A stretch of DNA of 64,000 nt from Phycisphaerales bacterium (GCA_044224425.1 JBGAKK010000020.1:1-64000); one strand, 5' to 3'. Numbered from the stretch's first letter, positions 3,065-55,128 are shown. Numbers and translations are program-made. The notes: generated by a model from the letters alone, not told the origin.

Positions 3065-4837
3065 ATGGTCGACTACAACCTGATCGAGGACCTGCGCCTC
3101 GATGACACCGCCGCCGAGAAGATGCTCCGCGATGCCTTTGGCGACACCGTGGCCAAGGGCAACATGGAGAGCCTCCTCAAGACCGAAGACATCAAGAACT
3201 TCGAGCAGGGCTCGATCCTGAAGGGCCGGGTCGTCGGCTACGCCGGCGACTACGTGGTCATCGAGGTCGGCCTGAAGAGCGAAGGCCTGGTCGAGAAGAC
3301 CGAGTTCGAAGGCGACATCGCCGTCGGCGACGAAGTCGAGGTCCTCCTCGAGCAGCTGGAGGGCGAGGACGGCGGCGTCATCCTCTCCAAGCGCAAGGCC
3401 GACCGCATCCGCGGCTGGGAGCAGATCCTCCAGACCCGCAAGGAAGGCGACGTCGTCGAAGGCAAGTGCGTGCGGAAGATCAAGGGCGGCCTGCTCGTCG
3501 ACATCGGCGTGCCGGTCTTCCTCCCCGCCTCGCAGGTCGACGTCCGCCGCCCCGGCGACATCGGCGACTTCATCGGCAAGACGGTCCGCGCCGTCATCCT
3601 CAAGATCGACGAGGAACGCCGCAACATCGTCATCAGCCGCCGCAAGCTCATCGAGGAGGAGCGCGAGGAAGCCAAGCGCCGCCTGCTCGAGAACGTGAAG
3701 GAAGGCGACATCGTCAAGGGCACGGTCACCAACATCGCCGACTTCGGCGCCTTCGTGGACCTCGGCGGCATCGACGGCCTCCTCCACGTCACCGACATGT
3801 CGTGGGGCCGCGTCAACCACCCGAGCGAAGTGGTCCGGATCGGCGACGAGATCGAGGTCAAGATCCTCAACATCGAGCGCGAGCGGGAGAAGATCTCCCT
3901 CGGCCTCAAGCAGAAGGAGACCTCGCCGTGGGAGCAGATCGAGCGCAAGTACCCGGTGGGCTGCCGCGTGAAGGGTGCGGTCGTCAACCTGATGAGCTAC
4001 GGCGCGTTCGTGCGGCTTGAGGAAGGCATCGAAGGCCTCGTGCACATCTCCGAGATGTCCTGGACCCGCCGCGTCAACCACCCGAGCGAGGTGGTCAACG
4101 TGGGCGACGAGGTCGACGTGGTCGTCCTCGACATCAACAAGGACAAGCTCGAGATCTCGCTTGGCATGAAGCAGACCGAGGTCAACCCCTGGGAGCTCGT
4201 CGCCGAGAAGTACCCGCCGGGGACGATCATCGAGGGCAAGGTCCGCAACCTCGCCAACTACGGCGCCTTCATCGAGATCGAGCCGGGCATCGACGGCCTC
4301 CTCCACGTCAGCGACATCTCGTGGACCAAGAAGGTCGCCCACCCCAACGAGGTCTTCAAGAAGGGCGACACCGTCAAGTGCGTGGTCATCGACGTCGACC
4401 AGGAGAAGCAGCGGGTCGGCCTCGGCCTCAAGCAGCTCGCCGAGGACCCGTGGATCGAGGCCATCCCCTCGGCCTACCGCCCCGGCATGATCGTGAAGGG
4501 CCACATCACGAAGATCACCAACTTCGGCGTCTTCGTCGAGCTCGAGGAAGGCCTCGAAGGCCTGCTCCACATCAGCGAGCTCAGCGACCAGAAGGTCGAG
4601 AACCCGCAGGACGTGGTCAAGGTCGGGCAGGAGGTCGACGTCAAGATCCTCCGCGTCGACACCGACGACCGCAAGATCGGCCTCTCCCTCAAGCGGGCCC
4701 AGTGGGGTGCCGGCCCCGATCCCGCCCACGGCGGCGAGCGCGAATCGGCTCCTGGCGAGGGCCGCATCAAGCCCACCCGCGGCGGCATGGACGACCACGG
4801 CGCGATGGGCACCGACAAGATCCGCTTCGAACGGTGA
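3065..4837 (+). CDS. rpsA: 30S ribosomal protein S1
   Basis: Start MVDYNLIEDL at ATG 3065. Six tandem S1 RNA-binding domains (G.V.NI.DFGAFV.L..G.DGLLH.S..SW). 591 aa. Confidence 0.95.
   Translation: MVDYNLIEDLRLDDTAAEKMLRDAFGDTVAKGNMESLLKTEDIKNFEQGSILKGRVVGYAGDYVVIEVGLKSEGLVEKTEFEGDIAVGDEVEVLLEQLEGEDGGVILSKRKADRIRGWEQILQTRKEGDVVEGKCVRKIKGGLLVDIGVPVFLPASQVDVRRPGDIGDFIGKTVRAVILKIDEERRNIVISRRKLIEEEREEAKRRLLENVKEGDIVKGTVTNIADFGAFVDLGGIDGLLHVTDMSWGRVNHPSEVVRIGDEIEVKILNIEREREKISLGLKQKETSPWEQIERKYPVGCRVKGAVVNLMSYGAFVRLEEGIEGLVHISEMSWTRRVNHPSEVVNVGDEVDVVVLDINKDKLEISLGMKQTEVNPWELVAEKYPPGTIIEGKVRNLANYGAFIEIEPGIDGLLHVSDISWTKKVAHPNEVFKKGDTVKCVVIDVDQEKQRVGLGLKQLAEDPWIEAIPSAYRPGMIVKGHITKITNFGVFVELEEGLEGLLHISELSDQKVENPQDVVKVGQEVDVKILRVDTDDRKIGLSLKRAQWGAGPDPAHGGERESAPGEGRIKPTRGGMDDHGAMGTDKIRFER
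4555..4805 (+). repeat. direct repeat copy 1 (last ~250 bp of rpsA, in situ)
   Basis: Roughly 98% identical to 7861..8110; both copies were read directly from the sequence. Confidence 0.9.
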
Positions 4838-4864
4838 GCGGCAGGCGCATCGGATGACACGACA

Positions 4865-4893
4865 AGCCCCGGCCGGAAGGCCGGGGCTTTTTC
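4865..4893 (+). terminator. intrinsic terminator after rpsA (bidirectional with the convergent 4927..5541 gene)
   Basis: agccccggcc-ggaa-ggccggggct followed by ttttt, immediately after the rpsA stop. Confidence 0.6.
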
Positions 4894-4926
4894 GTTGGGG
4901 GGACGGAAGTGCCGCGAGCGATGCAC

Positions 4927-5541
4927 TCAACGCCGGCGACGACCAGCCATCGCGAACCCAAGCGTCACCAACGCCAGGGTCCCCGGCCCTGGGATGTCGA
5001 CGACGTAGATGCTGTCGAAGTAGTCCGCGGCAACCATCACGCGGTTGAAGTCGAAATCCGTCGTCCATCCGAAGAAGTGGATGCCGTTGAAGTTGTGCCC
5101 GAGTCCCGGAGACGAGTAGATCGAGCCTTGGAGCACCCCGTCGAGGTAGAACTCGGCATAGGCGATGGCAAAGCCGTTCGGCGCCCAGCGATCGAAGGCG
5201 AACGCCCGCTGGTGGGTGCCGAAGACGATCGACGGCTGATCCTCATAGAAGCCAGCGACTGGCTTCCCGATCCAGCCGTCCGAGGCTGCCACGTTCTGGC
5301 TGAGCCCCCAGTTGCAGCCGCCCGGCACGAACTTGCTGGCAAGCGTGATGCCGAGGCTGGCATAGAAGTCCTGCGACACCACGGAGGGACTCCCGGTCGG
5401 CGACGCGAAATCCGCCTTCCAGGACTGTCCCACGGCAGCGTCCCACAACGGCTTCTCGTCGATGTAGGCGACGATCGACGCCTGGGCCTCGGCGGCGACG
5501 GCGAGCGCAGGACCGAACACGCACAAGTTCCTCGCGGTCAT
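4927..5541 (-). CDS. secreted protein with PEP-CTERM-like sorting signal
   Basis: N-terminal signal peptide (MTARNLCVFGPALAVAAEAQA). C-terminus ..VVDIPGPGTLALVTLGFAMAGRRRR has a P-G-P motif, a hydrophobic helix and an Arg cluster. Strong RBS ggagggagg 7 nt upstream. Start ATG sits 1 nt after the stop of the upstream gene. Confidence 0.6.
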   Translation of the reverse strand: MTARNLCVFGPALAVAAEAQASIVAYIDEKPLWDAAVGQSWKADFASPTGSPSVVSQDFYASLGITLASKFVPGGCNWGLSQNVAASDGWIGKPVAGFYEDQPSIVFGTHQRAFAFDRWAPNGFAIAYAEFYLDGVLQGSIYSSPGLGHNFNGIHFFGWTTDFDFNRVMVAADYFDSIYVVDIPGPGTLALVTLGFAMAGRRRR

Positions 5542-5542
5542 G

Positions 5543-7297
5543 TCAGCCTCCCTCCTGCGCTTCCAAGAGCGCCAGCAACTCCTCCAGCACGGCCTGCCGT
5601 TCCGTCGGGCCGGCCGACTCGCACCACGCGCTCAGCGCCTCGATCGACGCGAAGCCCATGGCGGCGGCGGCCGCGGCCGCCGCGTTTCCCGCCTCCAGCG
5701 ACGAAGCCTCGCTCTGTTGCTCCATGGCTGACGCGCCGCAGCCGTCGAGCCCGGAGCATGGCCAGGCGATCGCGACCGGCGCGTTCGACCAGGCCCCGAG
5801 GAGGATGGCAAGGTCGGATGCCCCGACCGCCTGGTCCTCGTCGAGGTCCGCGGACTCCACGACGCAGACCGTCTGGGAGCCCCACGCCCCGAGCAGGATG
5901 CCGAGGTCTGCCGCGCTCACCCGGAAGTCGCCGTTGAGGTCGGCAATCGCCGTCACGACGCCTGCGTAGAAGTTCTGCGACGCGGAGCAGGTCGTCGGCG
6001 AGCCGGGCAGGAGGGGCGATGCCGCCACGATGACCGCGATGTGCCCGAGTTGGTTGGTGTCGTAGGCATGCACGGCAGCCAAAGCCTCGTTCACGTTCAC
6101 CTCGTCGACCTTGTGCACGCACCACGACCCGTCGGAGCATTGGTCCCATGCGAGCGCCTCAGGCGCCAAGGCGGTCAAGGTCCAACCGACGACGCGATGG
6201 TGATCGCACATCGGGAGGCTGCCCTCGGCCGTACCCTCGGTGACGGGCGACGGCAGAGGCAGTGGCGGCACCGGGTCGACATAGGCGACCGGCGACGTCG
6301 CGTCCTCCCAGAAGGCGGGGCGCCGCACGCAGTCCACCTCCGGGTCCGGCACGTTGTACGACCCCGGGACGAAGCCCGTCTCGTCGATCCCGCGGGCGTA
6401 GGTCGTCTGGGCCGCCACCTCGTCGGAGGCGAACTCCTCGCGACGGAGCCAGATCGGCGAGCCGACCCCGGTCGCGAGCGCCCCGACTTGGAAGTCACCC
6501 GTGCAGGAGGTCCCCGCGTTGTCGCCGGCACATTGGTCCACGCTCGTGGTGCTCGGCATTTGGTAGGACATCGCCAACGGCTGGTTGTCCGCCACGTCGG
6601 TGAAGTAGATCTCGTGGGACGAGAGCCAGGTGGATCCGGTCGCCGGGTCGGGCTGCACGGGCGTCAGGGAGTAGACGGGATTCTGCCCGAGACGGAACGA
6701 CGCCGGTCGCATGTCACCCGGGCAGGTCGGCAGCCCGCAGGCGCCGACGATGCGAGGGTCCTGCCCGCCGACCCGCTCGACCGCCAAGGCGATCGACCAC
6801 GAGACGGCCTCGCTGTCCGGGTCGTCGAGCGGCTTGTTCACCTGGACCGGGTTCATGGTGTTGCCGGGCATATTCCACGCGAAGGCGTAGAGCCCGTCGT
6901 CGAGGTACTCGCCGCCCCGCCCGCCCACCACCAACCCGTCGTCGGTCACGTCGTTGGCGTAGCCGGCCTCCTCGGTGCCACCGCCGAAGAGCGAAAGGAG
7001 GTCGTAGAAGCCGGGACTGAGGCCGTAGGACGCGGTGGTCAGCCAGATGAAAGGTCGCGGGCGCCAGACATCATCGGAGACCTCCTTGAGATACGTGCCC
7101 ACCATCAGTCCGTCGTCGTTGATCGCGAGCGTGCCGGCACCGGTGGCGCCACCCCGCTGGCCGATCACGTACCCGGCCCCGACGTACGCGGACCCCACCT
7201 CGGCCTCCAGGATGGGCACCACTCGCCAGGTCCGTTCCACGGGGCTCGGCGGGCACTGACCCGCCGTCAGGGTCGAGATGGTCAGCCCTGCCGCCAC
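5543..7297 (-). CDS. large extracellular protein with C-terminal dockerin-like repeats
   Basis: C-terminus has two ADLNGDFRVSAADLGILLGAWG / DLDEDQAVGASDLAILLGAWS repeats. GTG start at 7297; an in-frame TAG lies just upstream. Translationally coupled to the PEP-CTERM gene. Confidence 0.6.
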   Translation of the reverse strand: MAAGLTISTLTAGQCPPSPVERTWRVVPILEAEVGSAYVGAGYVIGQRGGATGAGTLAINDDGLMVGTYLKEVSDDVWRPRPFIWLTTASYGLSPGFYDLLSLFGGGTEEAGYANDVTDDGLVVGGRGGEYLDDGLYAFAWNMPGNTMNPVQVNKPLDDPDSEAVSWSIALAVERVGGQDPRIVGACGLPTCPGDMRPASFRLGQNPVYSLTPVQPDPATGSTWLSSHEIYFTDVADNQPLAMSYQMPSTTSVDQCAGDNAGTSCTGDFQVGALATGVGSPIWLRREEFASDEVAAQTTYARGIDETGFVPGSYNVPDPEVDCVRRPAFWEDATSPVAYVDPVPPLPLPSPVTEGTAEGSLPMCDHHRVVGWTLTALAPEALAWDQCSDGSWCVHKVDEVNVNEALAAVHAYDTNQLGHIAVIVAASPLLPGSPTTCSASQNFYAGVVTAIADLNGDFRVSAADLGILLGAWGSQTVCVVESADLDEDQAVGASDLAILLGAWSNAPVAIAWPCSGLDGCGASAMEQQSEASSLEAGNAAAAAAAAMGFASIEALSAWCESAGPTERQAVLEELLALLEAQEGG

Positions 7298-7346
7298 GAC
7301 CGCTACCCGACCAAGGGACGCCTCGGACCGGCGACCCTGCCTACGC

Positions 7347-7380
7347 GTGTTGTGTTGTGTTGTGTTGTGTTGTGTTGTGC
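7347..7380. repeat. pentanucleotide microsatellite (TGTGT/GTTGT)x6-7
   Basis: gtgttgtgttgtgttgtgttgtgttgtgttgtgc, 50-83 nt upstream of the GTG start of the 5543..7297 gene. Confidence 0.9.
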
Positions 7381-7860
7381 TCTGAGTCGCATGGCGAGCT
7401 CCTGCTCGCGTCAGCGATGGAGTGGCGGAAGACCCCGAAGCGGGTGGCCCCGCCCGCCAGCAACCGTTTGCGCGCGGGACGCACAGGTGCGTCCGCTCGA
7501 CTGCTGGGCTCTCCCTTGCTCGATGCTATACGTAAGGCGCGGAGAGACTCCGTCGGAATCTGTCGAATCGAGATTCCTTTCACCAGTGCTCGCACGCGCG
7601 CGGGCCTGCATCGGAATTCGGGCGACGCCCTCCTCGTCCCGATCAACCCCATCTCGGCCAACGCACGGTTCGGTGCATCACCGACGATGCGTCCGGGTCT
7701 CGGCAGCATGGCTTCCGAGCACCGCACCGCTCGCGAATAGGCAGCCTCCCGCCCGATCGCCCCCGTTTCGCCCCGGTCCCAGCAAGGACCGCGATTCGTA
7801 CGATGCCGATGACCCCTGATTGGCGGAGCGGTGTGGCGTCGCCGCGAAGAAGCGTAGGCA

Positions 7861-8110
7861 CGAAGGCCTGCTCCACATCAGCGAGCTGAGCGACCAGAAG
7901 GTCGAGAACCCGCAGGACGTGGTCAAGGTCGGGCAGGAGGTCGACGTCAAGATCCTCCGCGTCGACACCGACGACCGCAAGATCGGCCTCTCCCTCAAGC
8001 GGGCCCAGTGGGGCGCCGGCCCCGATCCCGCCCACGGCGGCGAGCGCGAGTCGGCTCCTGGCGAGGGCCGCATCAAGCCCACCCGCGGCGGCATGGACGA
8101 CCATGGCGCC
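7861..8110 (+). repeat. direct repeat copy 2: orphan duplicate of the rpsA 3' end (non-functional fragment)
   Basis: Encodes GLLHISELSDQKVENPQDVVKVGQEVDVKILRVDTDDRKIGLSLKRAQWGAGPDPAHGGERESAPGEGRIKPTRGGMDDHGA, identical to the S1 C-terminus, with 4-5 nucleotide mismatches over 250 bp. It lacks the rest of rpsA. Confidence 0.9.
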
Positions 8111-8458
8111 ATCGCTGCGTTACGCGGGAGTGCGGCGCCCTCTCGCGGCGCAGCCGCGCCTCTTTGCGCCGCCCTTATTCCCTGCTCGTGGACAACGCGT
8201 TTCTTATGCCGCGTTGATGACCCCGCGCGGCGCTGTCGTGGCGCGGGGTCGCTTCGCTGCCAACCGTCGTGGCGGCCGCGCGGCGACGGTTGCCTCGGCC
8301 GGCGGCCAAACAGTTGGCAGGCGGGGCGGCTTGCCTCGCCACGGGGTCTCCGTAGCATCGCCCCAACCACCGGGCCCCGTGCCCGGCGCTGGCCTTGCCG
8401 CCGGCGTCGGGACGGACTCGAACCGCCCGGTCCCCCGCTTGCGGGGATAGGAGAGACC

Positions 8459-10453
8459 ATGACCCCTGTCGTGATCGTCGCCGGAGCGGCCCTCGCCGTG
8501 CCGCTCCTCGCCCTCTTCCTCCTGGTGCGCTACGTGCCGAACGAGCGCATCGCGGTGGTCGAGAAGCGATTCAGCGGCCGCGGCTCGATCAAGCACGGCC
8601 TCATCGCTCTCAACGGCGAGGCGGGCTTCGCCCCCACCGTCCTGCGCGGTGGCTTCCACTGGCTCAACCGCCTCCAGTACAAGCTGCACATCCTGCCCCT
8701 CGTGACCATCACCCAAGGCAAGATCGGCTATGTCTTCGCCCGCGACGGCGCCCCGCTCGGCCCGACCCAGACCTTGGCCTCGAACCGCACGGCGACCGCC
8801 TTCGAGGACGTGGCCGCTTTCCTCTCAAGCGGCGGCCAGCGCGGACCGCAGCGGCTGATCCTCCGCGAGGGCACCTATGCCATCAACCTCGCCCAGTTCG
8901 CGGTCATCACCGAGGAGCACGTCTACTTCCTCCCCCTGAGTAAGACCGAGACCGCCGTCTTCCAGGAGATGGCCGACCTGCTCGAGGACCGCGACGGCTT
9001 CACCCCCATCGTCATCAAGGGCAGCGAGGACCAGCTCGGGGTGGTCACCATCCACGACGGCCCGGCCCTGGCTGGCGAGCAGATCATCGCCCCCATCGTG
9101 GGCAGCGCGAGCGGCGAACCCGAGACCTACCACAACTGCTTCCAGGATCCCGAGAAGTTCCTCGCCGCCGGCGGTCGCCGCGGCCGCCAGGCCCAGGTCC
9201 TCGTCGAAGGCACCTATTACGTCAATCGCCTCTTCGCCACCATCGAGATGCTCCCCAAGACGGTGATCGACGTCGGCTCGGTGGGCGTGGTGGTGAGCTA
9301 CACCGGCGAGCTCGGCCTCGACCTCTCGGGCAGCGACTACAAGCACGGCGAGCTGGTGAAGCACGGCGAGCGCGGCGTGTGGAGCGAGCCGCTTCTCCCT
9401 GGCAAGTACGCCTTCAACACCTATGCCGGCAAGGTCATCCAGGTGCCGACCACGAACTTCATCCTCAAGTGGATCAGCGCCCAGACCGGCAGCCATCGCT
9501 ACGACGAGAACCTGGCCGAGGTCTCTCTCATCACCAAGGACGCCTTCGAGCCGTCGCTCCCGCTGAGCGTCGTCGTCCACATCGACTACCGCAAGGCGCC
9601 GCTCGTCATCCAACGCTTCGGCGACATCCGCCGCCTGGTCGAGCAGACGCTTGATCCCATGATCGCCGCCTACTTCAAGAACATCGCCCAGACCCGCACG
9701 CTCATCCAGCTCCTCCAGGACCGCTCGGCGATCCAGGAGCAGGCCGGCCAGGAGATGCGGGCCAAGTTCGCCCACTACAACCTCGAGCTGGAGGAGGTCC
9801 TGATCGGCACGCCGACCAGCGGCAAGGCCGACAACAAGATCGAGACCATCCTCAACCAGCTCCGCCAGCGGCAGATCGCCGAGGAGCAGATCGAGACCTA
9901 CGCCCGGCAGGAGAAGGCCGCGGTCAAGGAACGCGAGCTCCGCGAGGCCGAGGCTCGCTCGCGTCAGCAGCAGGCCATCACCGAGAGCGAACTCTCGATC
10001 GCCATCCAGTCGAACCAAGGCAAGGCCGAGTTCCAGCGCTCGCTGCAGGAGGCCGCCCGCGTGCGGGCCATGGCCGAGGCCGAGGGCTCGCGGATCCGCA
10101 CCATCGCCGAAGCCGAGGCCCAGCGGGCGGCCCAGGTCGGCTTGGGCCAGGCCATCGCCATCGAGGAGCAGGTCCGGGCCTACGGCGGGCCGCAGTTCCA
10201 GCTCACCCAGCAGGTGATGAACCGCTTCGCGGAGGCGATCCAGGCCGCCCACGTCGACGTGGTGCCCAAGATCGTGGTCGGCGGCGCGGGCGGCGGAGCC
10301 CCGAACGGCGGCAGCGTGATGGAGACGCTGCTCACCCTCCTCCTCTCCGAGAAGCTCGGCGTCCACGCCGGCAACGGCTCCGCCCCGCGCTCGGCAGAGG
10401 TCGAGGCCATGCGCGGCCAACTGCTCGCAGCGGCCAAGCCGGTCCAGAACTGA
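8459..10453 (+). CDS. flotillin-like SPFH/band-7 domain protein
   Basis: True start MTPVVIVAGAALAVPLLALF (ATG 8459, RBS ggagag). The upstream part of ORF 7820..10453 is the rpsA fragment plus non-coding sequence. N-terminal membrane anchor, SPFH domain, and a long E/A/Q/R-rich coiled-coil tail typical of flotillins (YqiK-like). Confidence 0.85.
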   Translation: MTPVVIVAGAALAVPLLALFLLVRYVPNERIAVVEKRFSGRGSIKHGLIALNGEAGFAPTVLRGGFHWLNRLQYKLHILPLVTITQGKIGYVFARDGAPLGPTQTLASNRTATAFEDVAAFLSSGGQRGPQRLILREGTYAINLAQFAVITEEHVYFLPLSKTETAVFQEMADLLEDRDGFTPIVIKGSEDQLGVVTIHDGPALAGEQIIAPIVGSASGEPETYHNCFQDPEKFLAAGGRRGRQAQVLVEGTYYVNRLFATIEMLPKTVIDVGSVGVVVSYTGELGLDLSGSDYKHGELVKHGERGVWSEPLLPGKYAFNTYAGKVIQVPTTNFILKWISAQTGSHRYDENLAEVSLITKDAFEPSLPLSVVVHIDYRKAPLVIQRFGDIRRLVEQTLDPMIAAYFKNIAQTRTLIQLLQDRSAIQEQAGQEMRAKFAHYNLELEEVLIGTPTSGKADNKIETILNQLRQRQIAEEQIETYARQEKAAVKERELREAEARSRQQQAITESELSIAIQSNQGKAEFQRSLQEAARVRAMAEAEGSRIRTIAEAEAQRAAQVGLGQAIAIEEQVRAYGGPQFQLTQQVMNRFAEAIQAAHVDVVPKIVVGGAGGGAPNGGSVMETLLTLLLSEKLGVHAGNGSAPRSAEVEAMRGQLLAAAKPVQN

Positions 10454-10478
10454 CATCGGCAGGTCCAATCGGACGACA

Positions 10479-10512
10479 AGGCCCCGGCAGCGATGCCGGG
10501 GCCTTGCTCCTT
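10479..10512. terminator. putative bidirectional terminator between convergent genes
   Basis: aggccccggc-agcgat-gccggggcct followed by tgctcctt. Confidence 0.45.
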
Positions 10513-10534
10513 CCGTCCGGTCGGGCGAGCGGCG

Positions 10535-12589
10535 TCAGCCCGCCACGTCGCCGAAGTGCCCGAGCACCTCGAGGATGTCGAGGGCGTCGACCTCGCCGTC
10601 GTGGTTGAGGTCGGCCGGGCAGTAGGTCGGATCGCCGCAGGGACCCCAAGCGAGGTGGATGGCGGTGATGTCGTCGCGATCGACGCGCCCGTCGAGATTG
10701 GCGTCGCCGGGGATCGCGATGGTGGCCAACTGCCGGTAGATGGCGTCGGTGACCGCATCGCCGTTGAACCCAAACCACGTCTCCTTCACCATCCCGGTCG
10801 GCGTGACCAGGAAGCTCCGCGAGAAGGGCAGGCCCGACGCTGGCTGCTGGTAGGCGACATAGGACACGCTGCCCGAGAGGTCGAAGAGCATCGGCATCCG
10901 CAGGTAGAGGTTGTGCCAGTACTCGTCGAGGAGGCTGGCGTCCTCCTTTTGGCTGATGAGGACCATCGACACCTGCGGATGGTGCTCGAAGAGGGCCCCG
11001 ATCGAATTCTGCACGTCGCACACGACCGGCATGCAGGCCGGGCACCAGGTGCCGAAGATCTGGAAGTAGACCACCTTGCCGAGCTGCTCGGTGAGGGAGA
11101 ACGAGCTGTAGGTGAAGAGCTCCCGCTCGTGGTCGTACGTCCACATGGGCAGCGTGAACGGCACGGCGGGCTGGCCAGGGTCGATGTAGCCCGTGTTGCC
11201 GAAGAGTTCGGCCGGGAGGATTGACTCGTCGGGGTCGTTCGAGGTGACCTTGAGCAGCGTCTGGGCCGCCGTTCCAGGCGTGTAGGTGACCGCGAGATTC
11301 ACCGATGCCCCCGGGGCGATGGTCATGGCATTGTGCGGCGTCACCGTGAAGTTCGCGGCTCCCGTCGCGATCGATGTGACGTTGAGGGGCACGGCACCCG
11401 AGTTCGACAGCTTCACGTTGATGGTGCCGCCCGCGGCCTCGAAGCGGACCCGCTGGTTCGAGAGGTTCGCGTCCGGCTGCGTGGAGCTGGCCAGCGGGAC
11501 GATGCGGTAGACGTCCACCGAATCCCAATTGGCGGCGAGGAGATGGTCGCTGCCCCAAGCGGCGACGCCGTGCCAGAGGCGGAGGGAGACCGCGCCGCCG
11601 GCCAGCATGCGATGCAGACCTCGCTCGGTGGTGATCGGCTTCAGCATCGCGTCCGGAGCGAGCTCGAAGAGGTTGATTCCGGTGATGTCGGCCACGGCCA
11701 GATAGCCGTGCAGGTCGGCCAGGGCCCGGGCGATGCCGGGGGTTTGGAACTGGTGGCGCCGCCCCACGTCGCCGTTCTCGTAGGTGAGGACGCCGGCGCT
11801 TCCGGCGGCGAGGTAGACGTCGCCGTCGATGACCGCGACGTCCTCGGCAGTGCCGAGGGCCGTGCCATTCACCCGCTCTCCCGCCACCACCCGCATGGCG
11901 GCCGGGTTAGCCACGTCGACCACCTTGAGCCCGCCGGCGCCGTCGGCGACGTACGCAGTTCGACCGTCGACGGCGATGGCGAAGGCGTCGGTGAAGCCGG
12001 TGCCGAGCGAACCGATCAGGGCTGGCTCCTCGGGCGTCGAGACGTCATAGCAGCGGATGCCGTAGGCATGCGCCGCGACGTAGAGCCGGTGCCCAGCCAC
12101 CGCCATGTCCTCGAAGTAGACGCCCGGCTCTTCCACCGTGGTGAGCCACTCAATCGCCTTGGTGGCAGGATCGATGTGGACCACGCCGAAACCGCCGAGG
12201 CGGAGGTTGGCGAAAAGGTACTCGTCGCCGTAGGGGACGAGCGAGTAGACGTCGTGACCGCGCAGCTCGCTGACGAAGCTGTTCGTCCCCTGCCCCGGCG
12301 GCAAGGCGTCGAGGTTGATCACCCGGAGCGCGTCGTAGGAGCAGGTGACCGCGAAGTGGTCGAAGATGGGCATGACGCCGACCAGGTGATCGCGGCCGAT
12401 GAGCTGGTGGTTGTAGCGACCGACATGCTCGAACCGGGCGTCGCCAGCGGCGAGCGCACTCCCGGCTGCAGTCAGGGCCAACGCCCCGACGAGGAGCGGA
12501 CGAGTGGCGCCGCAGACCCGGCGCGGACGGGCGAACTCAGCCGAAGCACGGGCCGCGGGTTCGCAGCCGGTCTCTTGCATGCGGTGCAT
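10535..12589 (-). CDS. secreted multidomain protein: LVIVD-type beta-propeller + Ig-like + thioredoxin-like (WCPAC) + C-terminal dockerin-like repeats
   Basis: AGGAGG RBS 5 nt before ATG 12589. Signal peptide LLVGALALTAAGSALAAG. Repeated ..GAGGLKVVDVANPA.. LVIVD-like blades. FGTWCPAC redoxin motif. C-terminus GDANLDGRVDRDDITAIHLAWG / DLNHDGEVDALDILEVLGHFG. Confidence 0.7.
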   Translation of the reverse strand: MHRMQETGCEPAARASAEFARPRRVCGATRPLLVGALALTAAGSALAAGDARFEHVGRYNHQLIGRDHLVGVMPIFDHFAVTCSYDALRVINLDALPPGQGTNSFVSELRGHDVYSLVPYGDEYLFANLRLGGFGVVHIDPATKAIEWLTTVEEPGVYFEDMAVAGHRLYVAAHAYGIRCYDVSTPEEPALIGSLGTGFTDAFAIAVDGRTAYVADGAGGLKVVDVANPAAMRVVAGERVNGTALGTAEDVAVIDGDVYLAAGSAGVLTYENGDVGRRHQFQTPGIARALADLHGYLAVADITGINLFELAPDAMLKPITTERGLHRMLAGGAVSLRLWHGVAAWGSDHLLAANWDSVDVYRIVPLASSTQPDANLSNQRVRFEAAGGTINVKLSNSGAVPLNVTSIATGAANFTVTPHNAMTIAPGASVNLAVTYTPGTAAQTLLKVTSNDPDESILPAELFGNTGYIDPGQPAVPFTLPMWTYDHERELFTYSSFSLTEQLGKVVYFQIFGTWCPACMPVVCDVQNSIGALFEHHPQVSMVLISQKEDASLLDEYWHNLYLRMPMLFDLSGSVSYVAYQQPASGLPFSRSFLVTPTGMVKETWFGFNGDAVTDAIYRQLATIAIPGDANLDGRVDRDDITAIHLAWGPCGDPTYCPADLNHDGEVDALDILEVLGHFGDVAG

Positions 12590-12860
12590 CGCTGCCTCCT
12601 AGGAAGGAGAGCGGGGCCCGGGAACGCGGAGTTTCCGCGCCTACCCCGCGGGAGAACCCCCCTGCGATCGAGCGCGGACGCCGCGGCGTCGAGCAGCGGG
12701 ATGTCACCAGCGTAGTGGATTCCGGACCTTCGGGTACGAGATTGCAGCGAAGATGACGAGGATCGTGGGGAGTCCGCGGCGCGGTGCGTCGAGGCGAGGT
12801 TTCGGAACGCGGATCTGGATTCGGTTGATTTGGGGGCGGGCGGGTTCGGATGGGGTTCGA

Positions 12861-13270
12861 TGGGACAGGCATCGACGGCGTGGGACAGGCACCTGCTTGG
12901 GCGGGCCGTCGGCCGCGGCATGGGACAGGCATGGCGGGTTGGCGGCCAGCCCGCTTGGGGACAGCCCGCTGGGGGACAGGCACTCGGGGCGGGCTCGACG
13001 TGGGACGGCCCGACGTGGGACAGGCACTCCGCATCCCCTGGGACAGGCACTCGGAACGCGAGCCAGGCACGGGACAGGCACTAGGACACGCATGGGCCCC
13101 GGTCCACCCGCCTGCCGGAATTGGGACAGGCAGGGGGGCGTGGGACAGGCACGGGCTTGGGACAGGCACGCGGCCGCGGCATGGGACAGGCATGGCGAGC
13201 TGGCGGCCGCCCGCCTTGGGACAGGCACCATGGGACAGGCACCACGGGACAGGCACCTCAGGACGGCCAC
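12861..13270 (+). repeat. array of ~17 direct copies of 11-mer TGGGACAGGCA (plus degenerate variants) with irregular 0-30 nt spacers
   Basis: Exact copies begin at 12861, 12881, 12921, 13016, 13040, 13122, 13141, 13158, 13182, 13217, 13231. Near-copies at 12956, 12972, 13001, 13070, 13083, 13245, 13260. All on the same strand, with non-periodic spacing. Confidence 0.9.
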
Positions 13271-13438
13271 CCCACCAACGACAACGCCCACGATCTCGTG
13301 GGCGTCTTCCGACTGATCCAGTTCTTCCCGCGTCGCCTCGTTGAGGCAACCGCGGCGACCTCTTGCCGAGGTCCCCGTCAACGCACGATCGCTCCTGCGT
13401 CACCCGAGCGTGGCTTCGGGCGTCGTGGAGCGAGGTAT

Positions 13439-13522
13439 TCAGCAGAGGGCGGCGTAGGCGAGCGCGGTGAGGATGAAGAGCTTCACCTTCCGGTCGTTGA
13501 TACGAAGTAGCGTGGAGAGCAT
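13439..13522 (-). CDS. possible 27-aa hydrophobic micro-protein (MLSTLLRINDRKVKLFILTALAYAALC)
   Basis: ATG with GGAG 6 nt upstream. Single predicted TM helix. Not in the ORF track because it is under 60 aa. Speculative. Confidence 0.25.
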   Translation of the reverse strand: MLSTLLRINDRKVKLFILTALAYAALC

Positions 13523-13700
13523 GTCTGGCTCCGAGCCTCTCTTCAGTTGTAGGAGAATCCCGCTGCCGGGCTGGCCTCGGTAGGATCAAAGCCTGTGCCA
13601 CGCCGGGGCGTCCGGGCCGCGAACGGCCTGGGTGCGAATCCTCGCGGGGTCCGCCCCTCTCCTTCGGTTCTGGATGCGCCACCCGATGCCCCGACGCAAC

Positions 13701-15647
13701 ATGGGTCGATGCCTCCTCGCCACGTGCCTGGCATTCTCGGCCCTCGCCTGTGGCGTGGCGGCAGCGGACACCGAGCCGCCGCATGGCGAGCCGCCGGCCG
13801 CGGAGAAGGCTCCGGCCGCCCAGCCACCGCCTCCCGCCGAGCACGGACCAAGCGAGCCAGACGTCGCGGCCTGCGTCGACGGCTACCTCGCCGCCCGGCA
13901 GTGGGTCGACACCCTCGCCCCGCCTGACCCGGAGGCCCCGGAATCACATCTCACGCTCCCCGGGGTACGCGGGGTCAGCGTGATCCTCCGCCACCAAGGC
14001 CGCATGGTCGGGATCGGCGACGACTGGCCACCTCTTGCCGGCGACGAGCGCATGCTCCGCCGGGCCGTGGGCCGAGCCATCGGCCGGGCCCTCGGTGACC
14101 GCGTCATCAGCGCCCTCCCTCCCGCCGAACGCGATGCGGCTGGCAAGCAGCTCACCGTCGAACTCGAGTTTGCCGGACGGCCCGAGCCGCTGCTTGGCCG
14201 GACCATCGCCGAGTGCGCGACCCGCGTCGAGCCGGGCCTCGATGGCTTGGCGATCCGCCGCGCCGGCGGCGGCAAGCCAGTCTGGGCCGTGGCCTTCCCG
14301 AGCCGGCTGCAGGCGACCAACCTGTCGGGTGGCCCGGAGCGAACGATCGTCTCCCTCCTCCTTGACGTCGGCCTCCCCGCGAAGGACCTGCCGGAACTCG
14401 CCCGCATCGAGCCGGTCGGCATCTTCAAGTTCTCCTCGCTTCGCCTCGCCCAGACCGGGCCGGACCGCCCGCCCATCGTGCGCGGCCGAGGCGCTGCCCG
14501 CGTCGCCGATGGCGACGTCACATCCGCGGCGATCGTGGCCCATGCTCGCCGGGTGCTCGATCGACTGCGGGAGTCGATGCCGCAGTCACGCAACGCAGAC
14601 GCCCCCTCCGCAGGCATCGGATTGGTGGGCGACTACCACCCGGTGAGCGACGAATGCAAGCCCCTCGTCGCCCCGCCGCACGACCAAGCGTTGGTGGCGT
14701 GGGCCGCGGCGGCCGTGGCGGCATCGGACAAGTTCCCGGCTGCCGATCGAGCCATGGCCAAACAATTCGCAGTGGCCATCCTCGAAGACCTGGTCATCCT
14801 CAATCCGAACGAGGAATCTCCCACCACGGCGACCCCGTCCCTGGCCTTTGCCCTGTGCGCGGTGACCACGTTGGGCGGCCCCAACGACCTGAGCGAAGAT
14901 GCCGCGGACCTGGCCCGCATCGCTCGCGAGAAGCTCGCCGTCGGCCTGCAGTCGGGCTCGCCCAACGATCGCTCGCTGGCCTGTCTCGCCGCCGCCATGA
15001 CCTTGGGCACCGAGCAGCGGCTCGCCCCGGCCAGCGACGTGCGCCGAGCCCTCGACATCGTGTGGGACGGGACGCCCAAGGAGCAGTTGGTCGCCTTCTT
15101 CCCCTGGCTCATCCTCGCTGAGAGCGCCTACGCCCGGGCCACCGGCCAGGCCGCTGCCCGCGGCGGCGAAGCGAGGGCCCTGACCCAAGCCCTCTTCCTG
15201 GCCCAGGCCGGATTCGGGGACCTCACCTCGCAGCAGGATCTCCGCGGCGGTTTCCGCCTGACGAACGGCCGCCGAGGCGGCGTCACCGCCCAGTCGCTGC
15301 GACCCGGCCTCGGGCTCGCGGCAATGGTCGCCTATCCCGGCTTCCTCACCGAGGACGCCTTGCCACTCCATCGCGAGCGACTCCTCGCCCTCGTCCGCTT
15401 CGCCTTCGAACTCACCGCGGACGAGGAATTGGCGTCCTTCTACCGGAATCCCGCTCGCGTCCTCGGCGGGATGCGCGAAGCCCTGTGGGACTCCGACCAG
15501 CCTGTCGCGGCCAACGCAGTGGGCGTCCTGGTCGACGTACTTGCCCTTGAGGCTGGCGTCGGTGCCAACGGCCACGGCCACGCCCCGGACGAACCCGGGC
15601 CTGCGAACGCTCCGGCCCCCGCTTCCCCAGCCGCACCCCCCGCCTGA
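13701..15647 (+). CDS. hypothetical secreted protein
   Basis: ORF 13632..15647. Preferred start MGRCLLATCLAFSALACGVAAAD (signal peptide). Pro/Ala-rich linker, then a ~580-aa domain with no recognisable motif. Confidence 0.55.
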   Translation: MGRCLLATCLAFSALACGVAAADTEPPHGEPPAAEKAPAAQPPPPAEHGPSEPDVAACVDGYLAARQWVDTLAPPDPEAPESHLTLPGVRGVSVILRHQGRMVGIGDDWPPLAGDERMLRRAVGRAIGRALGDRVISALPPAERDAAGKQLTVELEFAGRPEPLLGRTIAECATRVEPGLDGLAIRRAGGGKPVWAVAFPSRLQATNLSGGPERTIVSLLLDVGLPAKDLPELARIEPVGIFKFSSLRLAQTGPDRPPIVRGRGAARVADGDVTSAAIVAHARRVLDRLRESMPQSRNADAPSAGIGLVGDYHPVSDECKPLVAPPHDQALVAWAAAAVAASDKFPAADRAMAKQFAVAILEDLVILNPNEESPTTATPSLAFALCAVTTLGGPNDLSEDAADLARIAREKLAVGLQSGSPNDRSLACLAAAMTLGTEQRLAPASDVRRALDIVWDGTPKEQLVAFFPWLILAESAYARATGQAAARGGEARALTQALFLAQAGFGDLTSQQDLRGGFRLTNGRRGGVTAQSLRPGLGLAAMVAYPGFLTEDALPLHRERLLALVRFAFELTADEELASFYRNPARVLGGMREALWDSDQPVAANAVGVLVDVLALEAGVGANGHGHAPDEPGPANAPAPASPAAPPA

Positions 15648-15829: not shown

Positions 15830-16990
15830 ATGCCGACTCGCTCGACTGCTCGCTGGGCCTTCGTGGGGACGTTTTCGCTCTCGCTCGCCACGGTGCTCGT
15901 CGTCGGCGCCCAGCCGACCCACGCCCAGAACCTGTCGGAGCGCATGCGCGCCGTCGCCGAGCAGCGACAGCAAGCAGCGGCTCATGACTCGTCGAAGGCC
16001 TCGCTCCTCGGCGCCCTCCTCTACACCGACCTCACGGTCGACTTCAAGGACCGCCCGGCGAAGGAAGCGATCCAGTTCATCGCCGACGCCCTCGGCGTCC
16101 CGCTTGTCGCCCGCTACTCGAGCGACCGGGCCGGCACGGGGCTCGATCCCGACGCATCGATCACCTTCAAGGCCGAAGGAAAGCCCGCCCTCACCGTCCT
16201 CGAGATGGTGCTCGAGCAAGCCGGCGGCGGCGACGCGACCACGTGGCAACTCCGCGAGGGCTTCATCGAGGTCGGCACCAAGGAGCGCCTCCGCGTGGCC
16301 TCGGCCCGCGAACTCCGCATGTATCCGGTGAAGGACCTCCTCTTCGAGGCCCCGCTCTTCGACAACGCGCCTGACTTCAACCTCAACTCCGCCATCCAGC
16401 AGGGCTCGAACGGCAGCCAGGGTGGCGGCGGTGGCGGGAATGGCGGTGGCGGCGGCGGCTTCGGTGGCGGCGGCGGCGGCGGCTTCGGCGGCGGTGGTGG
16501 CGGAGGCGGCTCGGGCGGCGGTGGCCAGATCTTCGGCGACCCGGGCGATGCACCGGAGATGCCGAGCGAGGCTGAGAAGGCCCAGAAGCTCGTCGACCTG
16601 ATCATCGAGACCGTCGAGCCCGACGAGTGGATCGACAACGGCGGCGAGTCGTCGATCAAGTACTACCAGGGCGTGCTGGTGGTGCGGGCCCCCGACTACG
16701 TGCACCGGGCCTTGGCTGGCTATCCCTTCGCGGCTCGACCGCAAGCATCGCAGCCGGCTGGCGGGCGCTACGTGACCTTCACCGCTCCGATCTCGATCAT
16801 CCAGAACGTGAAGTTCCGAAACGGCACCGTGACCGGCGCTGCCGGCGGCGCCGGGACCGGGACCGGCGGCAACGGCGGTGGCGGCGGTGGCGGCGGCGGC
16901 GGCAACCCCGCTCCCCCGCAGACCCCATCGAGCCCCAGTTCGCCAAGCGGCGGCAAGGGCACGGGTGGCGGCGGCAAGGGCGGCAAGTGA
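15830..16990 (+). CDS. secreted protein, paralog A (STN-like N-domain, Gly-rich tracts, conserved ..VVRAPDYVHRALAGYP.. module)
   Basis: RBS aggagg before ATG 15830. Signal peptide. Two poly-Gly tracts. Shares two conserved blocks with the next gene. Confidence 0.65.
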   Translation: MPTRSTARWAFVGTFSLSLATVLVVGAQPTHAQNLSERMRAVAEQRQQAAAHDSSKASLLGALLYTDLTVDFKDRPAKEAIQFIADALGVPLVARYSSDRAGTGLDPDASITFKAEGKPALTVLEMVLEQAGGGDATTWQLREGFIEVGTKERLRVASARELRMYPVKDLLFEAPLFDNAPDFNLNSAIQQGSNGSQGGGGGGNGGGGGGFGGGGGGGFGGGGGGGGSGGGGQIFGDPGDAPEMPSEAEKAQKLVDLIIETVEPDEWIDNGGESSIKYYQGVLVVRAPDYVHRALAGYPFAARPQASQPAGGRYVTFTAPISIIQNVKFRNGTVTGAAGGAGTGTGGNGGGGGGGGGGNPAPPQTPSSPSSPSGGKGTGGGGKGGK

Positions 16991-27136: not shown

Positions 27137-28531
27137 TCAGAAGCTCCACGCCGCAATCAGGATGGAGAGGTCGGCAGCGTTGGTGGTGCCGTCCCCATCG
27201 AGGTCGGCGTTGGCCGTCCCCCACGAACTCAAGAGGATGCCGAGGTCGGAGGCCCCGACCACCCCATTGCCATCGAGGTCCGGGGTGAGGCCGGCCCCCA
27301 CCGCGCGGGCGAGGTCGAGGCGGCCCGTCCCGATGAGGCCGTCGAAGCCGGGATTCTGGAGGTAGATGGGCTTGGCCGTCCCCTTGAGCTGGTTCCGCAC
27401 CTCGGTCTGCGTCATCTCCGGATGGAGGGACTTGACGAGGGCTGCGGCGCCGGTGGCGAAGGCCGCCGCCACGCTCGTACCGTCGGCGATCGCGAAGCTC
27501 TCGCCGGGCGTCGTGCTGACGATGCCGATGCCCGGAGCGCAAAGGTCGATCTGCGTGCCGACCGCGCTGAATGGGGCGAGGACGTCGTTGGCGTCGGTCG
27601 CGGCCACGGCCAGAACCTTGCCGAGCGACGCCGGGAACAGCGGTCCGCCCTGGTCGGTGTTGCCGCCCGAGACGACCACCACGGCACCCGAGGCGACGGC
27701 GGCGTCGATCATCGACTTGACGAAGTCCGAACTCTGGGTGGAGCCGAAGCTCAGGTTGATGACGTCGGCCTGCTCCTCGATCGCCTCGGCCAAGGCAGCC
27801 GCGATGGCGAAGGTCTCGCCTTGGCCGTCAGAGTCCATGGCCCGGAGCGGAAGGATGGTGGCGGCCGGCGCGATGGTGTGCACGATGCCAGCCAGGAAGG
27901 TGCCGTGACCGGTCATCTCGTCGATCGCCCCGTCGCCGTCGTTGTCGAGCCCGTCGTTGCCGTCGGCCGAGCCGTCGGTGGCGCCGATGAAGTTGTAGCC
28001 GGTGATGAGCGGGCAGTCGGCGAGGTAGGAGTGCGTCTGGTCGAGACCCGTGTCGATGATCGCGATCACTACGCCCTTCCCGACCGTCACCTGGTGCGCT
28101 TCCTCAAGCCGCAAGAGTGGCCAGGCGTATTGCGAGTCGAACTGCGACGGCAGGGCCCCGAAGAAGAAGCTCTGGGTCTGGCCGTTCGAGATCTCGCCGC
28201 CCTCGTTGAACTCGACTTCCTCGACGCCGGGAATGCCCATGATCGCTTGGGCCACGGCCGACTCGCAGAGCGGCTCGGGCACCGAGATCAGCAGGTCGTC
28301 GTGGTCGGGCAGGGCGAAGAGGAGGCGGACCTGCGGATAGAGGGCGGTGATCTCGGCCATCACCGCGTCGACGTTGGCCCCGTCGTTGAGTTCGACGACC
28401 AGTTGGTCCTGCGTGGCGTGGTCGGGGACGCATCCGCCGTCGTCGTCCGCCCATGCTCCGCCTGCGAACCCGAGGGCCAGAAGGGTCGCGGCGATCGGCC
28501 AACGCGGGGATGTGACTCGGCTCGTACGCAT
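27137..28531 (-). CDS. secreted subtilisin-like (S8) serine peptidase with C-terminal dockerin-like repeats
   Basis: Catalytic D (VIAIIDTGLD), H (HGTFLAG) and S (GTSVAAAFATGAAAL) motifs. Signal peptide. C-terminus DLDGNGVVGASDLGILLSSWG / DLDGDGTTNAADLSILIAAWS. Confidence 0.9.
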   Translation of the reverse strand: MRTSRVTSPRWPIAATLLALGFAGGAWADDDGGCVPDHATQDQLVVELNDGANVDAVMAEITALYPQVRLLFALPDHDDLLISVPEPLCESAVAQAIMGIPGVEEVEFNEGGEISNGQTQSFFFGALPSQFDSQYAWPLLRLEEAHQVTVGKGVVIAIIDTGLDQTHSYLADCPLITGYNFIGATDGSADGNDGLDNDGDGAIDEMTGHGTFLAGIVHTIAPAATILPLRAMDSDGQGETFAIAAALAEAIEEQADVINLSFGSTQSSDFVKSMIDAAVASGAVVVVSGGNTDQGGPLFPASLGKVLAVAATDANDVLAPFSAVGTQIDLCAPGIGIVSTTPGESFAIADGTSVAAAFATGAAALVKSLHPEMTQTEVRNQLKGTAKPIYLQNPGFDGLIGTGRLDLARAVGAGLTPDLDGNGVVGASDLGILLSSWGTANADLDGDGTTNAADLSILIAAWSF

Positions 28532-37300: not shown

Positions 37301-37463
37301 CGTAGCGACCGGACTCATATGCCGCGCAAATGCTGCCCCAGTCCGCAGCGGAGATCCCCTGTGGCGCAGTGACATCTCTCAAGGCCTCGGCCCCCGACGC
37401 GTGCGAGAGCACGACGGCACAAATGGCGGCGATGTAACCGCTCCTCCCGTCGACTGGCTTCAT
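34314..37463 (-). CDS. large secreted FG-GAP-repeat (integrin-alpha-like beta-propeller) protein with C-terminal Ig/PKD-like domains
   Basis: Start MKPVDGRSGYIAAICAVVLSHASGAEA (ATG 37463, RBS gggag). Eight near-identical ~60-aa repeats (AYLKASNTG.GD.FG.SVA.SGDT.VVGA..EDSAATGV.GDQS.N.A..SGAAYVFVR.G..WSQQ) followed by beta-sandwich domains. Confidence 0.8.
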   Translation of the reverse strand: MKPVDGRSGYIAAICAVVLSHASGAEALRDVTAPQGISAADWGSICAAYESGRYAVGADGDEHRAWNPGHRWTTRFDGRGFDVVPNEHDWRWGLELVSWGRSGHEHAVDGAASVHVEGQRVTYAWDAALSEWYVNDWRGLEHGYTLRERLEGDGELSLVLNLRGDLCAEAATDGRAVRLLDDSGALILTYSGLTAFDADGLSVPARLESEERSLRLFIDDRKARYPVTIDPILQGAYVKASNTGSVDIFGRSVAIAGDTVVVGAPLEDSAATGVNGDQSNNAATESGAAYVFVRNGATWTQQAYLKASNTGPGDRFGWPVVLSTDGSTLVVGAWQEDGAASGVNGDQSNNAAPESGAAYVFVRSGGAWSQQAYLKASNPGSGDLFGRAIGISGDTVVIGATYEDSAATGVDSDQSSNAAADAGAAYVFVRNGETWSRQAYLKASNTDAYDGFGWQVAISDETVAITAFGERSSATGVNGDQADNTAWDAGAAYIFVRSGETWSQQAYLKASNTEPGDQFGCGEVAVSGDTVVVATFAEDSAATGIDGDQWDNGATDSGAVYVFVRTGGNWSQQAYLKASNTGTMDWFGWSLVLRDDTLVVGAVYEDSAATGINGDQWNGDAPIAGAAYLFERSGGSWSQSAYLKASNTGAGDHFGASVAMSGRTVVLCAPYEDSAASGVDGNEASNGAQDSGAMYVFELPPLNAPPICSVDGTQLDAMFSTLADGSYVVTEGETISAVVTGLDPDGDTLAVSFSGPPGATVEVDGAVATVSWTPTAADKALVPETLTITFAGLSGESTACGFTVGDVNLRPSCQAIALGEDGAMPTECASFLGAVVTLTGSATDGDDPPESLHYHWDVSDQSVALNDPEGGVATGLFPVGVTMATLTVADGRGGVSTCDVLVSVQDTTPPEVECTTSVAALWPPDHKMRDVQVVVRATDACIDPGAVLPLVVTVRSDEPDDAPGGGDGSTTGDVDGSDGYASPRNVTSKLTYQPSLGAWVGTVKLRAERAGSGDGRAYTFDVAAVDSAGNLAVTSCVVVVPHDRRPGAN
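35360..36790. repeat. tandem ~180-bp coding repeats (8 FG-GAP units) inside 34314..37463
   Basis: Nucleotide-level near-identity between units, e.g. repeated ..gtacgcctgctggctccacg.. and ..gaacacgta(c/t)gcggcacc.. blocks. Confidence 0.6.
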
Positions 37464-38047
37464 AACGGCTATCTCCCTTCTTGAGAAGGCCGCGCTTGTT
37501 CGCGGCAACTACGTACGCGACAACCGGGGGCGTATCCCGCAGCGAGATCACGCTGGGCCGGTTCCTCTGTCGCGCGCGGCGCCAAAGACGATGGCTTGGG
37601 ACCGACGCGTAGATCAAGTGGAGCCTCCTGACGGGCTGCCTGAAACTGACGGCGACTCGGACCAGGACGCCGTCCCTCGAACAAACACTGCGCTCTCGGG
37701 CCAGCGGAGGGCGCCGATCGGAGAGATCGGTCCCCGTTGCGCCCTGTGTGCCACCGTCTCTCGCTCGAAGACCCCGCGGCTCGTCAAGCTCCCGGTCACA
37801 CCCGCTCGATCGCGGGCCGAATGACCGCTTGTCGCGTAAGTCCGGACTCCCGCAGAGAGCGGAGCGCCGAGGGGACATAGCTCACCGGCGAGCCAACTTG
37901 CAGGGCCTACGGTCAGTTAGCTCGTTGGGGAGCAACCGATGCCCCGCACGGGCCCGGAGGCTGACTGGCCAGCAGTGCGTAGACCGCGTCGGCACCGAGA
38001 CCGAGCTGGATCCGCATCCCCGCTGAACTGGAGGTGGTAATGCGCTC

Positions 38048-55098: not shown

Positions 55099-55128
55099 GA
55101 GCCCCGGCCCAGGCCGGGGCTTTTTTTT
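55099..55128 (+). terminator. intrinsic terminator
   Basis: gagccccggcc-cag-gccggggc followed by tttttttt. Confidence 0.6.

Follow-up and report, generated by a model that had tools for sequence, protein, structure and literature searches.

Cis-mobilizable elements (CIMEs) are found at the 3' end of housekeeping genes, for example at that of fda in Streptococcus. Flexible genomic islands and minimal mobile elements (MMEs), such as the MMEs of Neisseria and the additive islands of marine bacteria, consist of variable cassettes which lie between conserved genes and are exchanged by homologous recombination; homology-facilitated illegitimate recombination (HFIR) normally replaces or deletes recipient DNA, without duplicating the anchor. 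We report here on a locus to be compared with these systems, namely the 3' end of rpsA (encoding 30S ribosomal protein S1) in a 64,000-nt stretch of DNA from a Phycisphaerales bacterium (Planctomycetota, 69% GC; GCA_044224425.1 JBGAKK010000020.1:1-64000). In this stretch, hereafter the window, the end of the gene is present twice, and a two-gene cassette is located between both copies. Islands targeting tRNA genes or other gene 3' ends and integrase-less CIMEs have been reviewed (PMC5704250, PMC7563491), HFIR has been described (PMC3240628), and the merodiploids arising from natural transformation in Streptococcus pneumoniae (PMC3784515) are related to Campbell-type insertion-duplication.

The rpsA locus shares features with each of these systems. 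As in Campbell-type insertion-duplication, a contiguous gene segment is directly duplicated so that it brackets the inserted DNA, and the gene is completed by the proximal copy; a dedicated recombinase is unnecessary, and the event is RecA-reversible when both copies are complete. In a sister species (and only by analogy in the window), the proximal copy comes with a foreign 3' untranslated region (UTR) and terminator, while the distal copy is of resident type and contiguous with the resident flank. The window differs from this scheme in that its distal copy appears to have been truncated later and is joined on its left side by an illegitimate junction, and in that a natural circular intermediate is hypothetical. 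With islands at tRNA genes and other 3' ends, and with CIMEs, the locus shares a housekeeping-gene 3' end as its site, flanking repeats of that end and a gene restored by element-borne sequence; as in CIMEs, the cargo is devoid of mobility genes. Unlike in these systems, no cognate integrase-bearing element was found for rpsA (we know of none), breakpoints differ between the two cases described below, and the repeats consist of allele-like homology over 170-250 nt instead of a short conserved core. As in flexible islands and MMEs, conserved flanks (rpsA and a 671-aa gene) enclose lineage-specific content, and the cargo encodes surface or secreted proteins typical of the clade, although classical replacement islands leave the flank unduplicated and additive islands are usually located at tRNA genes and carry integrases. 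As in HFIR, one end is homology-anchored (in rpsA) and the other end is joined illegitimately, but the window duplication would require an unusual join upstream of the paired anchor. Finally, neither the terminal inverted repeats nor the transposase of a transposon or insertion sequence were found.

The structure adds to the known insertion-duplication scars, or integrase-less islets, which lie at housekeeping-gene 3' ends. The interpretation we favour, to which we give about an even chance of being correct, is that the duplication is a scar left by recombination when genes were added at a hot spot located directly 3' of rpsA.

The duplicated rpsA 3' end and its cassette

The features on which the argument depends are the following.

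3065 to 4837, + strand: rpsA (30S ribosomal protein S1), intact; open reading frame (ORF) open from 2762; Pfam S1 E=1e-103, five matched stretches
4555 to 4806, + strand: repeat copy A, within functional rpsA, covering half of the last S1 domain (its second half) and the C-terminal tail
4807 to 4895, + strand: end of rpsA (10 codons and the stop), followed by its 3' UTR and intrinsic terminator; single copy, outside the repeat
4927 to 5541, - strand: cargo gene 2, 204 aa, predicted secreted protein with a signal peptide and a PEP-CTERM-like C-terminus (PGPG-TM-RRRR)
5543 to 7297, - strand: cargo gene 1, 584 aa, C-terminal double dockerin-type repeat (Pfam Dockerin_1 E=0.005, sub-threshold)
7298 to 7860, no strand: non-coding right arm of the insert, 563 nt without codon periodicity
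7861 to 8112, + strand: repeat copy B, orphan rpsA 3' fragment which starts in the middle of the last S1 domain and lacks the last 31 nt and the stop

A first reading of the DNA, based on the sequence alone (hereafter the sequence-only reading), had reported that the end of rpsA recurs downstream as an orphan fragment. This duplication is real: repeat search and pairwise alignment both delineate a direct repeat of 252 nt (4555-4806 and 7861-8112) with five mismatches (98% identity). It is the sole long repeat at >=90% identity within the window, and it is far above chance expectation, as the longest exact repeat in mononucleotide-shuffled windows is 16-17 nt. Copy B is indeed an orphan, with non-coding sequence on both sides: it retains a coding-type GC content at third codon positions (GC3) of 0.94, yet its flanks (7298-7860 and 8113-8458) show no codon periodicity. 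The lack of the last 31 nt and of the stop codon had been missed, so that a simple picture of two matching attachment sites (attL and attR) is incomplete here. At the left edge of copy B, which is an apparently illegitimate junction, no clear microhomology was seen. By contrast with copy B, the proximal gene is complete. The window S1 protein is 83-92% identical to Phycisphaerales S1 proteins (584-590 aa), and its C-terminal tail, MDDHGAMGTDKIRFER, followed by the stop, agrees with that of the orthologues. The rpsA terminator consists of a hairpin (4864-4889) and a T-run, and the hairpin is similar to that of the rpsA terminator of a relative (L102).

The five sites at which copies A and B differ (4582, 4708, 4744, 4798, and 4804) are all synonymous and all at third codon positions in the rpsA frame (P=(1/3)^5=0.004, considering position alone). 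Alignment with four orthologues places the derived state in copy B at 4798, 4804, and probably 4744, and in copy A at 4708. Both copies thus look like two functional rpsA alleles which have been joined, rather than a gene and its decaying in-situ duplicate, because a pseudogene fragment in decay would not change at silent sites alone.

Contigs from independent metagenomes carry the same junction between copy A and the cassette. An identical cargo gene 2 protein (204 aa) is encoded on 11 short contigs from unrelated metagenome assemblies, and in L001-L010 the cassette is joined to the rpsA 3' end with 99.8-100% identity to the window. The contigs which extend to sites discriminating A from B carry A-specific variants, except L007, which has a B-like base at 4708. 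MEGAHIT contigs stop at 4559 and 4567, i.e. <=12 nt from the left repeat boundary, and Logan contigs (presumably assembled with k=31) stop at 4768-4774, just beyond the reach of the last A-specific single-nucleotide polymorphism (SNP). Contig ends are thus located where a genuine repeat breaks de Bruijn assemblies, which argues against a one-off mis-join. Because of this repeat, short-read assemblies of the window organism break at rpsA.

Between the copies, the rpsA terminator, the two-gene minus-strand operon (genes 1 nt apart, TGA-C-ATG) and a pentanucleotide microsatellite were all found as the sequence-only reading had described them, while its labels for the two cargo proteins fared unequally. 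The dockerin label of cargo gene 1 falls below the Pfam threshold but is backed by a typical double repeat (DxDxDG...DLxxLLxxWG), also present in at least six other window genes. The PEP-CTERM label of cargo gene 2 did not hold: its protein has no Pfam or NCBIfam match at E<=0.01, including to the PEP-CTERM sorting-domain hidden Markov model, and its C-terminus, IPGPGTLALVTLGFAMAGRRRR, is a PEP-CTERM look-alike only. Seven homologues of cargo gene 1 were found, the closest being 40% identical; none adjoins rpsA, and they are always paired with a partner gene of ~210 aa. The pair thus occurs as a unit elsewhere: in different genomic surroundings, L181 and L182 encode homologues of 590+208 aa and 608+216 aa, and cargo gene 2 is 40% (L181) and 28% (L182) identical to the partner genes. 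Dockerin double repeats are located at 5783-5956, 10547-10627, 27140-27295, 44981-45151, 47036-47178, 54921-55066, and 57854-57999 (at least seven window genes), and secreted proteins of the clade appear to carry this double repeat as a typical module.

The non-coding right arm yielded no match in Pfam, Rfam, and promoter-consensus scans, and blastn, tblastx, and Pfam comparisons aimed at remnants of genes in the non-coding arms returned only composition noise. The arm contains a perfect (GTGTT)6.6 microsatellite (7347-7379, detected with TRF (Tandem Repeats Finder)), 50 nt upstream of the start codon of the cargo operon. Two Logan contigs obtained from other samples (L001 and L002) end inside this microsatellite, the length of which could differ among strains. 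The arm also contains a low-GC patch (~7500-7620; GC 0.55 at 7500-7579, under the 1st percentile of 80-nt windows). The sequence-only reading had called a low-GC stretch at ~7400-7620 promoter-like: a local drop in GC was confirmed but no match to the sigma-70 consensus was found in the patch, which we presume to be the promoter region of the cargo operon.

Alleles of the junction in relatives and the search for mobility genes

The most direct evidence for an addition of DNA at this position comes from a sister species. The S1 clusters closest to the window are 91-92% identical, and one of them, P0002 (S1 91% identical at the amino acid level), is represented by contigs from several samples which show two alleles. 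In the empty allele (L091), rpsA is followed by 170 nt and then by a TetR-RND-AcrB operon; in the occupied allele (L092-L096, n=5), an additional 3.75 kb is located between them. The comparison with related genomes which had been suggested as a check of the sequence-only reading thus did reveal an empty site, in the sister species. The repeat of the sister species comprises the last 128 nt of rpsA and 44-53 nt of 3' UTR (172/181 nt, 93% identity), with copies as follows.

L091, 4400 to 4571: single copy of the empty allele
L092, 4211 to 4391: proximal copy of the occupied allele
L092, 8143 to 8314: distal copy of the occupied allele

The distal copy matches the empty allele exactly, as do the 6.2 kb of flank beyond it (100% identity), and this copy is complete at its 3' end (...KIRFEE*). 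The proximal copy differs synonymously at one position, has 9 nt inserted directly behind the stop codon as well as two substitutions, and then runs into a hairpin/terminator region which is only 73% similar. Because of this divergence, the DNA which now completes the sister rpsA brings a foreign version of the rpsA 3' UTR, orthologous in type. The cargo encodes a 379-aa protein, a C39-peptidase-like ORF, and a 358-aa protein, all unrelated to the window cargo, and its GC3 is atypical (0.64-0.66 vs 0.74-0.80 in the flanks). Tandem repeats of 168 nt are located in the gene which precedes the sister rpsA (L091 1-938, L092 1-749, and L096 1-1285), and their copy number varies by sample.

Comparison with other relatives shows that genes have been gained preferentially at the junction directly 3' of rpsA, which is thus a hot spot. 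When 15 related loci for which both flanks are available are compared pairwise, 67 of the 105 pairs share the upstream 3 kb, but only 20 share the downstream 3 kb. The junction is followed by TetR-RND-AcrB in L091, by the same genes preceded by the insert in L092, and by a thioredoxin gene in L101 and L097; in L101, TetR-RND-AcrB is found further on, beyond the thioredoxin gene. A compact gene order, MFS-DCC1-rpsA-615 aa-344 aa-MFS, is found in L188 (S1 86% identical), in which the 615-aa gene is the homologue of window 13632-15647 and starts 420 nt after rpsA (the junction being L188 6000-6420). Because the homologue is so close to rpsA in L188, the ~8.7 kb present at the window junction (4838-13583) can be considered lineage-specific. 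Duplication of the rpsA 3' end was not found in 80 further loci from Joint Genome Institute (JGI) metagenomes or in L188, and only palindromic terminators and one 48-nt terminator-like repeat (L123) were seen in the relatives screened. In the latter, a more distant relative, the terminator-like hairpin following rpsA (3298-3345) is repeated (85%) at 4269-4316, ~970 nt downstream; these are probably two similar terminators. L101 and L097 also differ by the presence or absence of 1.3 kb downstream of the thioredoxin gene (L101 12486-13825 vs L097 5172-5221), in the species with S1 cluster P0004.

No recombinase or integrase was detected with Pfam, NCBIfam, and PHROGs among the cargo proteins, the ORFs of the non-coding arms, the sister cargo and 37 window ORFs (those supported by GC3; for Pfam the outcome covers the best 25 of 89 families, for PHROGs all of them). 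The same protein searches returned no transposase, in agreement with the sequence-only reading, and no inverted repeat with arms near 4838 and 7860 was found. tRNA scans and Rfam searches (in gathering and E-value modes) gave zero matches, and plasmid and phage collections yielded no similar sequence. Within the ~10 kb of flank visible per locus, no integrative and conjugative or integrative and mobilizable element (ICE/IME) was seen at rpsA in ~90 related loci. Among the papers listed by a limited full-text literature search, there was no precedent for rpsA as an integration site with an integrase or a direct repeat. Finally, the repeat starts 283 nt before the stop codon in the window vs 128 nt in the sister species, and the junctions share no common motif.

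Sequence downstream of copy B

Two further features are located immediately downstream of the repeat.

8113 to 8458, no strand: non-coding spacer of 346 nt without periodicity, separating copy B from the flotillin gene; its left edge is a second, apparently illegitimate junction
8459 to 10453, + strand: SPFH/flotillin gene (YqiK-like), Pfam Band_7, within the lineage-specific block 8113-13583

An ORF of 877 codons (7820-10453) passes through copy B into the flotillin gene, in frame and without a stop. A fusion protein between an S1 fragment and flotillin was considered and is ruled out: the spacer is aperiodic (GC1/2/3 0.73/0.79/0.70) and its translation is Arg/Cys/Trp-rich junk, and flotillin homologues share the same start Met and are all 650-700 aa long. 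We take the open frame as an accident of a GC-rich genome.

At the DNA level, the flotillin gene shares 81-84% identity with L011 10004-11916 (a Phycisphaerales metagenome-assembled genome), L186 10037-11898, and L187 995-2934. Homology stays within the coding region in these three contigs: their neighbouring genes are unrelated, and the spacer is not conserved upstream of their flotillin homologues. This pattern points to the flotillin gene as a separately acquired module. Flotillin-like proteins with 65-72% identity are found in Acidobacteriota, Chloroflexota, Myxococcota, and other phyla, a distribution which suggests frequent horizontal transfer of the flotillin/YqiK-like gene. Further rpsA 3' remnants, as serial accretion would leave, were absent from 8113-13700 and from the downstream regions of L091 and L101, where generic terminator hairpins were the only hits.

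Other observations concern the window at large. A 28-nt GC-rich palindromic motif in the spacer (8136-8163) recurs with 93% identity at 1890-1917, between MFS and methyltransferase genes, and a hairpin of the rpsA-terminator type is also located 3' of the flotillin gene (10473-10505). Two tandem paralogous genes (51723-55073 and 55688-58003; 74-85% DNA identity, spacing 2933 nt) are each followed by a hairpin resembling that of the rpsA terminator (55100-55125 and 58052-58078). A 1064-aa minus-strand ORF (34317-37508) contains about six imperfect tandem repeats (35482-36758; period ~201 nt), and GC3 bias is weaker at 34-43 kb than in the remaining window. Lastly, long Gly-rich GGC/GGT repeat tracts (16400-16912) are found inside a 386-aa ORF (15830-16990).

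Origin of the duplication and its consequences

The sequence-only reading had seen here the footprint of DNA added at the rpsA 3' end, bringing a functional 3' end and terminator and displacing the resident fragment. The architecture and the empty-site allele of the sister species back this view, and a single crossover (Campbell-type) or an unequal inter-strain recombination is the most likely origin, ahead of site-specific integration. The donor would have been a closely related lineage, contributing DNA with the 3' part of its rpsA, the 3' UTR and terminator, the two-gene surface-protein operon, and ~560 nt of non-coding sequence. This DNA would have recombined inside the 3' region of the resident rpsA, either as a circularised fragment integrated by a single crossover (Campbell-type insertion-duplication) or through an equivalent unequal exchange between strains. 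The incoming 3' end and terminator would then complete the essential rpsA gene (copy A), and the resident 3' end would be displaced 3.3 kb downstream (copy B). A second rearrangement would later have cut copy B 31 nt before the stop codon, at 8112/8113, and the resident downstream genes (TetR-RND-AcrB in relatives) would have been replaced by a flotillin / LVIVD-redoxin block, probably along with this cut.

Following truncation, a RecA crossover between A and B would produce an S1 protein without its last 10 residues and stop, fused to a long read-through. Because copy B has no stop codon, loss of the cassette would be counter-selected and the insert is probably locked in. Such a lock-in would account for the occupied state being the only one seen in the window species while the sister species is polymorphic, since the distal copy of the latter is complete.

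Several points weigh against this scenario. In the window's own species, exact-protein look-ups of S1 and flotillin recovered no empty-site allele and no independent contig across copy B, the flotillin being on record from a single contig which is presumably the source itself; because no conspecific empty-site allele was recovered, we infer which copy is resident in the window by analogy with the sister species. The empty sister allele may just as well have arisen from the occupied one by deletion, and the circular intermediate is hypothetical. Mismatch sites 4798 and 4804 border the fuzzy right edge of the repeat, and the three secure sites alone give P=0.037, i.e. a weaker synonymous bias; moreover, in-situ duplication followed by allelic replacement of copy A would likewise leave synonymous differences alone. 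The window insert shows no compositional anomaly (GC 0.68 vs 0.69), and codon usage, which had been put forward as a check together with GC, is uninformative as to its foreignness (GC3 0.85-0.87 vs 0.90-0.96). Finally, an integrase encoded in another part of the genome may act in trans and would escape a 64-kb window.

A first rival explanation is an integration resembling those of tRNA islands, the analogy drawn by the sequence-only reading. A degraded or satellite site-specific element (a CIME-like islet) would have been targeted to the rpsA 3' end by a tyrosine or serine recombinase, with A and B as attL and attR; the attP of the circular element would bear the replacement rpsA 3' end, and the recombinase would be encoded elsewhere in the genome or have been lost. 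Direct repeats of the target 3' end which bracket the insert while leaving rpsA intact, the precise empty/occupied polymorphism of the sister species, and the fact that the same gene was struck by two independent events in sister lineages are all expected under this hypothesis. We nevertheless consider it rather improbable, as no recombinase was found in either insert or in the 37 window ORFs tested (within the Pfam and PHROGs scope given above), no inverted repeats were found, the left repeat boundaries differ (283 vs 128 nt before the stop) without a common junction motif, and ~80 relatives are devoid of the duplication. In addition, homology of the sister insert grades from 100% (coding sequence) to 73% (terminator), as between orthologous alleles and unlike a minimal att site, and copy B lacks the gene end expected in attR.

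A somewhat lower probability is assigned to the tandem duplication and gene replacement which the sequence-only reading had listed as its alternative. The segment 4555-7860 would have been duplicated in situ through an illegitimate join (7860|4555), and most of the second unit then deleted down to 252 nt, the cassette being an ordinary resident neighbour of rpsA. Tandem duplication with later remodelling is the commonest spontaneous rearrangement in bacteria, mobile-element features are absent from both junctions, and GC of the insert equals that of the flanks. However, this route requires more steps, no remnant of a second terminator or cargo copy was found, and the all-synonymous differences, with derived states mostly in the non-functional copy, fit it poorly. 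Nor is the cassette located downstream of rpsA in any relative examined, and the sister copies have different 3' UTR alleles, the distal one being continuous with the empty-site flank, which tandem duplication does not predict. By far the least probable explanation is an assembly artefact, in which strain variants of the rpsA 3' end were mis-joined. The source does seem to be a metagenome-assembled contig, stretches of as many as 125 nt are identical between the copies, and other assemblies fragment at this point. Yet sequence on either side of copy B is unique, so that both junctions must exist in reads, and the five copy-specific SNPs separate the copies at k>=127. Moreover, contigs from independent samples end where a genuine repeat would break the graph, and the sister architecture was assembled repeatedly, from different samples and with different assemblers.

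For annotation, the ORF that connects copy B with the flotillin gene should not be recorded as a fusion protein. A broader proposal would be that integrase-free cassettes use the rpsA 3' end as a recurrent homing arm in this clade of Phycisphaerales; they would carry their own rpsA tail and terminator, circulate between strains, be inserted by host recombination, and could become fixed once the displaced tail is truncated so that their loss would destroy S1. We regard this generalization as a long shot. The data document a gene-gain hot spot after an essential ribosomal gene in the poorly studied Planctomycetota (Phycisphaerales), with both empty and occupied alleles of the sister species caught in natural populations. 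If host recombination suffices, flexible surface-protein genes could be added to these genomes without mobile-element machinery and, if the scenario holds true, secondary truncation can render such gene addition effectively irreversible.

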